From contig CAWUVN010000031.1 of the NCBI GenBank assembly GCA_963925995.1, positions 8,683-72,682 of the forward strand: DNA of 64,000 bases, read 5' to 3'. The position numbers and the translations under genes were made by a program. This document shows, piece after piece, positions 10,506-59,552 of the stretch (the stretch's first letter is position 1; every line of letters begins with the position of its first letter). A model generated the notes under the pieces. The model was not told the DNA's origin. It did not search any database and worked only from the letters and a program-made list of their open reading frames with translations. The stretch comes from an uncultured Pseudomonadales bacterium. Lineage in GTDB: Bacteria; Pseudomonadota; Gammaproteobacteria; Pseudomonadales; Porticoccaceae.

Positions 10506-10588
10506 GTCATACTAGCGTAGGCTAGTATCTAGTGATCTGTAGAGATGTCCCAGCCTTCGCTGGGATGACGTTCTTTCGCCAGTATGAC
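10506..10588. repeat. three GTCAT-family palindromic units
   Basis: gtcatACTAGCgtagGCTAGTatc (10506-10529), an inverted gtcCCAGCcttcGCTGGgatgac (10547-10569), and a half unit agtatgac (10581-10588). They lie between convergent hda and sppA. Confidence 0.85.
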
Positions 10589-15652: not shown

Positions 15653-15734
15653 GTCATCTCGGGTTTTTATTTTTTCTGTCATCTCGGCTTTTTATTTTTC
15701 CTGTCATCTCGACAGAGCGTAGCGACGAGAGACC
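15653..15734 (+). repeat. three GTCATCTCG-headed units at exact 25-nt spacing (two truncated, one full palindromic unit)
   Basis: gtcatctcg starts at 15653, 15678 and 15703. The third continues as gtcaTCTCGacagagcgtagcgaCGAGAgacc. Confidence 0.85.
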
Positions 15735-15767
15735 TCTATCCACGTACTTCCCATTTTGTTCGAGCGA

Positions 15768-15925
15768 AATAGCCTCTGCCTCCATTCTTGAGATCGGTCC
15801 CATGGGTTTGTAATTTCCAGCGTTCGCACAACTCGCTGGCGCTCAAACAAGTGCTCTCTTAACCTGAAAATTCCAAACCCATAAGCGGGCCCTGACTGAT
15901 CTCAAGGGTGGAGGCAGAGACTATT
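15768..15925 (+). repeat. long imperfect hairpin element, copy A (candidate structured RNA or structured DNA repeat)
   Basis: The 28-nt outer arms (15768-15795 and 15898-15925) and the ~19-nt inner arms (15801-15820 and 15864-15882) are complementary. It is homologous to 58747-58903. Confidence 0.8.
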
Positions 15926-16045
15926 TGAAATTCCGCAGAAGAGTCCATTTAAAAAAATGGGTATTTAATAAAAGAATCCGAAATAGAATTACAACTCGAT
16001 CTTGAGGCTTGCCTTCACCCTGAGCTAAAGGCTCTCTCTAGGCTG

Positions 16046-40718: not shown

Positions 40719-40917
40719 GTCCTGAGCCGCGCAGCGGAGAAGGACCCCGTCCGTGAAACTCGCAGCGGAGAAGGACCTCTAACACCCCGCATGATCTCCC
40801 CATGAAGCACCGTCATCCCAGCGAAGGCTGGGACCTGTCTCTATCACTGCATACTATAATAATGGGTTAACAGCGAGGTTCTAGAGGTCCCAGCCTTCGC
40901 TCGGATGACGGTGCTTC
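40719..40917. repeat. REP-like repeat block: two direct GCAGCGGAGAAGGACC units and a 33-nt inverted repeat
   Basis: Direct units lie at 40719-40746 and 40759-40777. The inverted-repeat arms at 40804-40836 and 40885-40917 are complementary at 32/33 positions, and each arm carries a gtcatcccagcgaaggctggga unit. Confidence 0.9.
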
Positions 40918-40976
40918 GTGGATATAATGGCGCTTCGCTGAGATATGCTTTGTTAATATGACGAGGTTGCCGAGCC

Positions 40977-45674: not shown

Positions 45675-45736
45675 GTTACCTCGCGAAGGAACGCCACCTC
45701 ATAAAGGAACGTCACCCCAGCCTTCGCTGGAATGAC
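45675..45736. repeat. GTCAT-family palindromic units (degenerate)
   Basis: gttacctcgcgaaggaac (45675-45692) and an inverted gtcaccccagccttcgctggaatgac (45711-45736). Confidence 0.7.
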
Positions 45737-45796
45737 GATGGATTCGTTCTTAAGATAAATCCCATGTTAACTTATCGAATAATTTAGGTGCCCGCT

Positions 45797-58595: not shown

Positions 58596-58624
58596 AAGCC
58601 CGCCAGTTGTGGCGGGCTTTTTTA
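58596..58624 (+). terminator. intrinsic terminator
   Basis: aagcccgcc-agtt-gtggcgggctt followed by a T-run. Confidence 0.85.
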
Positions 58625-58633
58625 TTCCATTCT

Positions 58634-58716
58634 GTTATCCCAGTTTTTCACCTTATCCTGTATCCCGGCTATCCGTTTTATCCTTTCATCCCGACAGAGC
58701 GTAGCGATGAGGGATC
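58634..58716 (+). repeat. three degenerate GTCAT-type units at 25-26-nt spacing, homologous to 15653-15734
   Basis: gttatccc (58634), gtatcccgg (58660), and ttcatcccgacagagcgtagcgatgagggatc (58685-58716). Confidence 0.8.
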
Positions 58717-58746
58717 TCCTTGCCGGTTACTTCCTGTTTTGGCGTG

Positions 58747-58903
58747 GAATAGCCCCTGTGTATTGCCTTGAGATCGGTCCCATGGATTTGCAATTCCCAG
58801 CGCTCCCGCAACTCGCTTCGCTCAAACAAGCGCTCGCTCAGTCTGGGAATTACAAATCCATAAGCGGGCCCTGACTGATCTCAAGGCAATACACAGGGGC
58901 TAT
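58747..58903 (+). repeat. long hairpin element, copy B (candidate structured RNA or structured DNA repeat)
   Basis: The outer arms 58747-58774 and 58876-58903 are perfectly complementary over 28 nt. The inner arms are 58780-58799 and 58842-58860. It is homologous to 15768-15925. Confidence 0.85.
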
Positions 58904-58989
58904 TTGAACTATCGCAGTACAGTCAAAAAATATTTGAATTACGCTCGGTGTTTGAGCTTAGTTGCGCGCCATACTTGCTACAGCGCCCC

Positions 58990-59081
58990 GTCATGCTAGC
59001 GAAGGCCAGTACCTCTTCAACCGGCAGCATAATTCGAAAGACCCCAGCCTCCGCTGGGGTGACGTTATTAGCTGGGGTGAC
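58990..59081. repeat. GTCAT-family palindromic units
   Basis: gtcatgctagcgaaggccagtacc (58990-59013), an inverted ccccagcctccgctggggtgac (59042-59063), and a half unit gctggggtgac (59071-59081). Confidence 0.75.
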
Positions 59082-59150: not shown

Positions 59151-59531
<381 letters not shown>

Positions 59532-59552
59532 TTTTTATGGTTTTGCAATGAA

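Follow-up and report, generated by a model that had tools for sequence, protein, structure and literature searches.

ERIC (IRU) sequences of the enterobacteria and vibrios are imperfect palindromes of more than 100 nt, present in a few tens of copies. They are old, lie in intergenic regions at gene ends, and are thought to act as folded transcripts. The attC sites are used as a folded bottom strand with extrahelical bases, and are found 3' of a gene with the folded strand on the leading-strand template. REPINs are mobile doublets of REP sequences in which compensatory hairpin changes have been documented, and in these elements the two terminal REPs are conserved while the spacer varies (PMC3116915). 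On a smaller scale, the DNA mini-hairpin, defined as GCGNAGC or GCGNNAGC with any base at N, is known from ssDNA initiation sites and melts at 76.5 °C as DNA versus 39 °C as RNA (PMC13037366). The window analyzed here, a 64,000-nt stretch of DNA from an uncultured member of the Porticoccaceae, carries two hairpins, A and B, that are real, selected and undescribed. They are members of an intergenic repeat family restricted to the SAR92 clade (Porticoccaceae).

Two hairpins and their family

Both hairpins were predicted on the + strand in collinear orientation, and as written on the window this is correct: copy A spans 15768..15925 as proposed, while copy B, proposed at 58747-58903, was one base off and is better placed at 58748..58904. 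Each is a near-perfect hairpin of ~158 nt for which folding is favored on the - strand, and a covariance model of the family scores A at 178 bits and B at 190 bits. A scan of the whole window with this model, with filters off, detected no third copy. The 28-nt left arms, whose sequences had been quoted exactly, differ at 8 positions. Six of these eight are two-sided changes from one Watson-Crick pair to another, where at least five compensated positions had been claimed; the seventh replaces T·G in A with G-C in B, and the eighth is one-sided, with T·G in A and C-G in B. The loop segments that join the helices, GATCGGTCCCATGG and CCATAAGCGGGCCCTGACTGATC, are identical in the two copies as predicted, each occurring exactly twice in the window with zero mismatches, and shuffles give an expectation of zero chance matches for the 23-mer segment. 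Both copies fold as one long rod; A reaches -76.4 kcal/mol (z = -8.8), and B reaches -90.9 kcal/mol (z = -12.3). The two copies are also homologous for ~110 nt upstream and ~20 nt downstream of the hairpin.

Taken as a whole, the element is a rod of ~165 nt whose ends read AATAG...CTATT. An outer stem of ~27 bp, with the middle 8 free to vary, leads to an invariant GATC/GATC helix, followed by a core whose bulges are confined to one side, an inner stem in which the middle ~8 bp are variable, and a conserved apical domain. In copy A the left arm of the outer stem (15768..15795) is partnered with the right arm (15898..15925), their middle ~8 bp being the variable box. The left half of the invariant core, GATCGGTCCCATGG, is located at 15792..15805 and is nearly invariant in 81 distinct copies; the right half, at 15879..15901, accompanies the one-sided bulges AAGC and CTGACT (AGTCAG and GCTT when read on the - strand). 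The apical domain of copy A (15821..15863, - strand) comprises helix P_a, two tandem G·A sites and the apex itself, which reads GC-GCCA-GC on the - strand at 15835-15842. In copy B, an exact-match search places the two halves of the core at 58772..58785 and 58858..58880, and the apex, GCGAAGC on the - strand at 58815..58821, is the mini-hairpin motif (PMC13037366). The + strand of copy B also contains an ORF of 31 codons (58781-58876) that takes its ATG from CCATGG in the left core and its TGA from CCCTGA in the right core. This ORF is attributed to chance because codon 4 is TAA in copy A and in most of the other copies, and a coding reading of the hairpin was rejected on the same grounds.

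A covariance model trained on 21 copies recovered at least 149 copies from genomes and metagenomes. By shared neighbor genes these fall into roughly 45 loci, an approximate figure in which at least one orthologous pair (L092/L013) is split in two. All copies are from Porticoccaceae (SAR92) genomes or marine metagenomes, and homologs of one window protein carry the source names Porticoccaceae or SAR92. An exact scan of one genome per species, using 19 nt of the right loop as the query, returned 20 loci (21 copies), two to five per genome and all in Porticoccaceae/SAR92 (HTCC2207-like, MOLA455 with at least one copy, L007, and MAGs), plus six further matches inside genes that are ascribed to chance; a metagenome scan returned at least 120 marine loci. 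The per-genome counts from the exact scan are several-fold too low, because the 19-mer has C at a position that is T in 67 of the 81 distinct copies and so matches only ~1 copy in 6. A 2-Mb genome is likely to contain tens of copies. BLAST searches of plasmids and phages gave no match to the hairpin, nor did a scan of viral contigs. The original prediction recognized no named RNA family in the element, and searches of Rfam 15 at the gathering score and at E <= 10 were indeed empty of any family matching either hairpin, the sole overlap at E <= 10 being a chance match to mir-3160 (E = 8.8). Resemblances to twister, hammerhead, K-turn and SRP were supported neither by Rfam models nor by the layout of pairs. 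Literature searches on small RNAs or repeats of SAR92, HTCC2207 or Porticoccaceae found nothing.

Alignment of 81 distinct sequences places standard pairs in 93.6% of cells (92-94% across alignments), compared to 79.7% in column shuffles and 29-47% when partners were slid by 1-3 columns. Two-sided changes are seen at 31 pairs, or at 37 once two apical helices derived by hand are added. One pair in the apical region occurs as G-C (40 sequences), A-U (38) or U-A (two), and the two-pair apex stem is 100% paired with seven compensated cases. The one-sided bulges are invariant in the 81 distinct copies. Pairing and core are maintained by selection, and with 102-147 copies in support it is beyond doubt that the hairpin is a selected structure of compensated helices around invariant asymmetric loops, as had been proposed from the two copies in the window. 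Gene conversion is unlikely to be the sole cause of core conservation, as, on a scale of 10 nt, blocks that are conserved alternate with blocks that vary. An outer helix built from the flanking sequence is present in only part of subfamilies I and III and is not general.

The folding strand and its working form

The original prediction mildly favored a + strand RNA, based on the two T·G pairs and one C·A pair found on that strand in the outer helix of copy A. This count is correct, but it is not representative of the family, and across all copies the preference is reversed. Mismatches in the stems occur as A·C on the + strand (equivalent to G·U on the -) versus G·U on the + strand at a ratio of 146:21, a count that leaves out two invariant core columns. 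The same comparison in the ungapped outer arms, which does not depend on the model alignment, gives 107:20 in total and 35:8, 24:2 and 48:10 by subfamily. The - strand is the more stable of the two in 100 of 110 distinct copies with RNA parameters, by a mean of 9.3 kcal/mol, and in 103 of 110 with DNA parameters, with A and B included in both sets. The RNA folding energies of the + and - strands are -76.4 versus -79.8 kcal/mol for copy A and -91.5 versus -98.9 kcal/mol for copy B. Two internal UC/UC sites on the + strand are tandem G·A sites on the - strand, and the tandem G·A pairs and the GC-GNA/GNNA-GC apex are found on the - strand only. Here the + strand is the G-rich one, on which the known replication bias turns C into T, and this bias would yield the opposite excess of mismatches; the simplest reading is therefore that selection acts on the fold of the - strand. 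Pairing is optimized on the - strand of the window, and a strand call made from two copies can flip once the whole family is examined.

Read on the - strand, 40 copies have the apex GC-GNA-GC and 58 have GC-GNNA-GC, which puts a GNA or GNNA loop in 98 of 107 distinct copies. The apex stem is exactly GC/GC in ~87 of the 98, the rest being covarying GT/AC or AC/GT or, in three copies, mispaired (GC/AC, GC/GA and GC/GG). This apex falls within the definition of the DNA mini-hairpin, and its two stem pairs covary. Among the tetraloop apices, 46 of 58 are GNYA and not GNRA, the tetraloop expected of RNA. An apex-type motif, GAGCGNAGCGA, also occurs inside the adjacent REP-like units. In tandem gene contexts the folding strand is antisense to the flanking genes by 39:6, and judged by GC skew the + strand of the element is the G-rich strand at 96 loci versus 16. 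Between convergent genes, where gene direction is uninformative, the skew polarity is 24:5 (17 versus 4 distinct elements). A GC-skew polarity of this kind is typical of ssDNA processes at the replication fork and would be odd for expressed RNA genes. From these sequence features, DNA appears likelier than RNA as the working form of the hairpin.

The main rival reading, possible though in our view doubtful, is that the family instead represents a small structured RNA transcribed from the - strand, with a promoter at each hairpin base and with bulges and apex that bind a protein or form tertiary structure. Such an RNA would be in keeping with the wobble asymmetry and the folding energies, which favor the - strand, with covariation of classical RNA type, and with purifying selection on the core at orthologous loci; transcription of the - strand would also bias it toward C-to-T changes. 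Subfamilies I and II share a conserved 16-nt sequence 5' of the hairpin on the - strand, GTACTGCGATAATYCA, which holds a good extended -10 box (TGCGATAAT-like) ending 4 nt before the hairpin. The corresponding extension of copy B (58905..58920, - strand) reads GTACTGCGATAGTTCA and resembles an extended -10 box, and that of copy A (15926..15941, - strand) has diverged from the consensus. This box is, however, absent from subfamily III and from L149, and simple scans at copies A and B detected no sigma-70 promoter or element-associated terminator, the one terminator-like site being that of the upstream gene at 58596-58625. Such transcripts would run head-on to replication and antisense to their neighbors in ~85% of cases, and they would mostly carry GNA or GNYA apex loops rather than GNRA. 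Tens of copies with master-like arms, accompanied by tandem duplicates and decay, would likewise be unusual for sRNA genes.

Genomic context, turnover and cassette-like loci

The elements occur at gene 3' ends, keep a fixed polarity with respect to the flanking genes and to GC skew, and avoid divergent promoter regions. In 98 of 114 cases the gene upstream of the element is co-directional with it, and contexts between convergent genes outnumber those between divergent genes by 37 to 7. The right-hand neighbors belong to 51 families of diverse housekeeping genes, so a linked protein gene as a cis-acting partner was rejected; no transposase, integrase, reverse transcriptase, RAYT or recombinase is found among these 51 families. 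A tblastn search with an IS200-like transposase gave no match in 1.1 Mb of flanking sequence, which is a weak test as the query was approximate. The DUF5062 gene upstream of copy B is followed by a strong intrinsic terminator (58596-58625, + strand) that stands between the gene and the hairpin, and terminators similarly precede the element in L002, L006, L008, L014 and L020. The only Rfam match in the window, a bacterial class A RNase P RNA (59151-59534, + strand, 327 bits), is ~250 nt downstream of copy B, and the gene order purL-DUF5062-rnpB-mraZ is conserved in relatives.

Small REP-like units of the form GTCATCYCG...GAGCGNAGCGAC...GAGRGATC are found on the + strand to the left of both copy A (15653..15737) and copy B (58634..58718). 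These GAGCGNAGCGAC units often accompany the hairpin, but they constitute a separate repeat because they also stand alone at 1114-1155 (window span 998-1155) and are missing at the L016 site orthologous to copy A. They often form short arrays of truncated heads, with a T-run after each head, and are insertion-polymorphic between strains, being present in L089 and not in L132, and at copy A and not in L016. A loose REP-head pattern that covers both REP types matches the window 11 times on the + strand versus 5 on the - strand, with two of the matches inside purL. A classical, REPIN-like REP doublet is present at 40805-40921, consisting of two inverted units of a second type, CGTCATCCCAGCGAAGGCTGGGAC, ~55 nt apart; the hairpin model matches this doublet weakly, at 30 bits. 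Single units of the CGTCATCCCAGCGAAGGCTGGGAC type are located at 10543-10578, 45710-45745 and 59037-59072. Short tandem repeats of GAGATTGAGAGTGCCGG, AGCTGAG and GGTGCG units adjoin some copies of the hairpin (L057:262-330, L044:1830-1892, L049:738-770).

Comparison of orthologous copies shows that the variable box diverges by 11-28% and flanking non-coding DNA by 14-22%, whereas the core, inner stem and apex diverge by 2.8-5.4%, ~5 times more slowly than the flanks, and the nine pairs adjoining the core show zero changes. The variable box thus diverges at the rate of the flanks, by which hypermutation of the box was rejected, and the pattern is therefore one of core constraint plus neutral mid-stem drift with compensation. 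Between loci, 530 pairs of variable boxes are identical or one base apart, most of them in subfamilies II and III. Such clustering resembles populations centered on a master sequence, a pattern that is clear in II and III and weaker in subfamily I, which holds A and B. The earlier argument that differing arms set the element apart from an ordinary MITE needs qualification here, as two subfamilies show near-identical arms at many different loci.

A ~310-nt unit made up of a REP-like unit, linker, hairpin and right flank is tandemly duplicated at L094:2365-2841, where the repeats are nearly identical and recent, and at L129:3080-3561, where they have diverged and are older. An internal deletion has left a remnant of 44 nt in L024 (L024:5787-5842), and a deletion between GATCTCAAGG repeats has produced a hybrid in L014 whose arms no longer pair (L014:4498-4661). 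Between the DUF5062 gene and rnpB, the window lineage and L149/L150 carry the element, whereas the site is empty in L147/148 and L151/152. Presence and absence are seen only between distant lineages: among 226 flank pairs the only candidate for an empty site was one decayed remnant, and the flanks yielded no clear target-site duplication and no precise empty site between close strains. Duplication, decay, and presence or absence therefore mark the family as a dispersed repeat rather than simply a set of related genes. The copies downstream of leuB (L025:852-1016, L027, L040 and L054) have arms of the subfamily III type even where the other copies of the genome belong to subfamily I. In L025 the right-arm base next to GATC has switched to the subfamily I state while the left arm is unchanged, a change that may stem from gene conversion or from adaptation to a host factor.

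In an intergenic hot spot between ADH and flavoprotein genes, an inverted pair of hairpins encloses different genes in different genomes: a GFA-family gene (L019:3523-4368, L145), a GNAT gene (L017:3552-4448), a Zn-ADH gene (L127:1432-2996), or nothing (L014, which carries the hybrid hairpin). Homology at this locus breaks 10-24 nt outside the hairpins at no fixed position. In L056 an inverted pair encloses an HTH gene, and to the right of one element the sequence continues differently in each of three genomes. These arrangements are suggestive of recombination at or near the elements, but the breakpoints are not fixed, the pairs are inverted, and only two loci are involved. They are also what might be expected if the hairpin were an attC-like folded-strand recombination site that borders single-gene cassettes and is cut by a structure-specific recombinase, and the one-sided extrahelical bases, the position 3' of a gene and the location of the folding strand on the leading-strand template all parallel attC. 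We nonetheless judge this reading improbable: the pairs are inverted and not direct, the homology breakpoints vary (13-24 nt outside the hairpin), R-box-like GTTRRRY/RYYYAAC ends and arrays are absent, no integrase is among the neighbor families, cassettes are seen at only 2 of the ~45 loci, and deletion between short direct repeats accounts for L014 and L024.

The original prediction of a + strand RNA could be recast as an element co-transcribed in the 3' UTR of the upstream gene and serving as a terminator or mRNA stabilizer, which would suit its co-directional position behind a gene in 98 of 114 cases and its resemblance in placement to REP, ERIC and terminators. This seems very improbable given the 7:1 excess of A·C over G·U on the + strand, a + fold that is ~9 kcal/mol weaker, and pyrimidine-pyrimidine mismatches where the - strand has G·A; moreover, a strong intrinsic terminator often separates gene and element, as at 58596-58625, and the hairpin is not followed by a U-tract. 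Imperfect inverted repeats can acquire apparently compensatory double changes in a single event of template switching, and clustered multi-base changes do occur between orthologs (e.g., winB versus L076), but a functionless palindrome kept symmetrical by such quasi-palindrome correction and not by selection is scarcely credible, as correction would erase the one-sided bulges that are invariant in 81 distinct copies, the core evolves 5 times more slowly than the flanks at orthologous sites, and the strand asymmetry of mismatches would be left unexplained.

Interpretation and comparison with known systems

The reading we prefer, with moderate confidence, is that of a REPIN/ERIC-class dispersed repeat that acts as a folded single strand, probably of DNA, and is bound via its invariant core. 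The family would constitute a lineage-restricted, dispersed, non-coding intergenic hairpin repeat of the Porticoccaceae (SAR92 clade), and its working form would be a folded single strand that is more likely DNA than RNA. The invariant bulged core and the GATC-flanked helices could provide the recognition surface for one trans-acting protein encoded elsewhere, candidates for which are a RAYT-like HUH enzyme and other structure-specific proteins that bind or recombine DNA, while the variable helices would need only to pair. Copies may spread and persist via their interaction with this putative protein, and each host lineage would carry its own “master” arm sequence.

Several observations count against such a REPIN/ERIC-class repeat. 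REPINs conserve their ends, whereas the SAR92 element conserves its center. The ~5-fold slower evolution of the core indicates a host- or locus-level constraint, which fits an RNA gene as well, and the extended -10-like box of subfamilies I and II is positioned such that transcription would begin at the hairpin base. The strand that folds lies on the leading-strand template, while the IS200/IS605 paradigm predicts the opposite polarity. The 1.1 Mb of flanks contains no match to a transposase, RAYT or recombinase, in what is a weak test, and comparison of close strains gave neither a target-site duplication nor a precise empty site.

Unlikely, by our estimate, is that the hairpins are recognition sites of an undescribed structure-specific system acting on the folded strand, in the form of either a protein-bound - strand RNA of ~165 nt or an ssDNA recombination or processing site. 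If the ssDNA option were true, inverted hairpin pairs would delimit swappable single-gene cassettes in streamlined marine genomes, following an integron-like logic with a different architecture. Abundant in coastal waters, the SAR92/Porticoccaceae have genomes that are small and tightly packed, yet they probably maintain tens of copies of the element per genome. The element presents a clean natural case of invariant one-sided bulges in freely covarying helices, with a measurable strand asymmetry that reveals the folding strand. Three questions thereby become directly testable: whether a REPIN-like repeat can be under host constraint, which protein reads such a structure, and whether hairpin pairs mark gene exchange.

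While a REPIN/ERIC-class repeat is our preferred reading, the SAR92 hairpins are members of no REPIN, ERIC, attC or Rfam family, as one defining feature of each is lacking. Like attC, the SAR92 element conserves structure without sequence, has extrahelical bases on one strand only, lies 3' of a co-directional ORF with the folding strand as the leading-strand template, and can have small accessory genes (GNAT, GFA) between sites. Unlike attC, it possesses no R'/R'' core sites (RYYYAAC / GTTRRRY), arrays or nearby intI, its gene-flanking sites are inverted, its conserved part is in mid-stem, and its copies are scattered or inverted. With the ssDNA initiation signals and hairpin promoters of the phage G4 origin, RSF1010 ssiA and the phage N4 early promoters it has in common a strand-specific DNA mini-hairpin (PMC13037366). 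Those signals are single phage or plasmid sites on the strand to be primed, whereas the SAR92 element is present in tens of chromosomal copies.

Like ERIC, the SAR92 element is an imperfect palindrome of more than 100 nt present in tens of copies in intergenic regions at gene ends. The two differ in host clade, and the favored strand of the SAR92 element is antisense to neighboring genes; no blastn match to the hairpin was found in 5,426 E. coli genomes, which carry ERIC (127-bp consensus), and ERIC copies are alike along their whole length, whereas the stems of the SAR92 element differ freely. Compared to REPINs, the SAR92 element is longer (~165 versus ~110 nt), is conserved in its central asymmetric core and apical domain while its ends and mid-stem vary, is not accompanied by a RAYT among the 51 neighbor families, has a folding strand that is the leading-strand template, and is constrained in its core at orthologous sites. 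In other respects it resembles the REPINs and REP-BIMEs: it is extragenic and present in tens of copies, is predicted to form a long hairpin in ssDNA or RNA, and shows compensatory changes in its arms (PMC3116915). It also shares with them lineage-specific master-like sequences, vertical persistence and tandem arrays, and the window itself carries both REP-like units and the REP doublet at 40805-40921.
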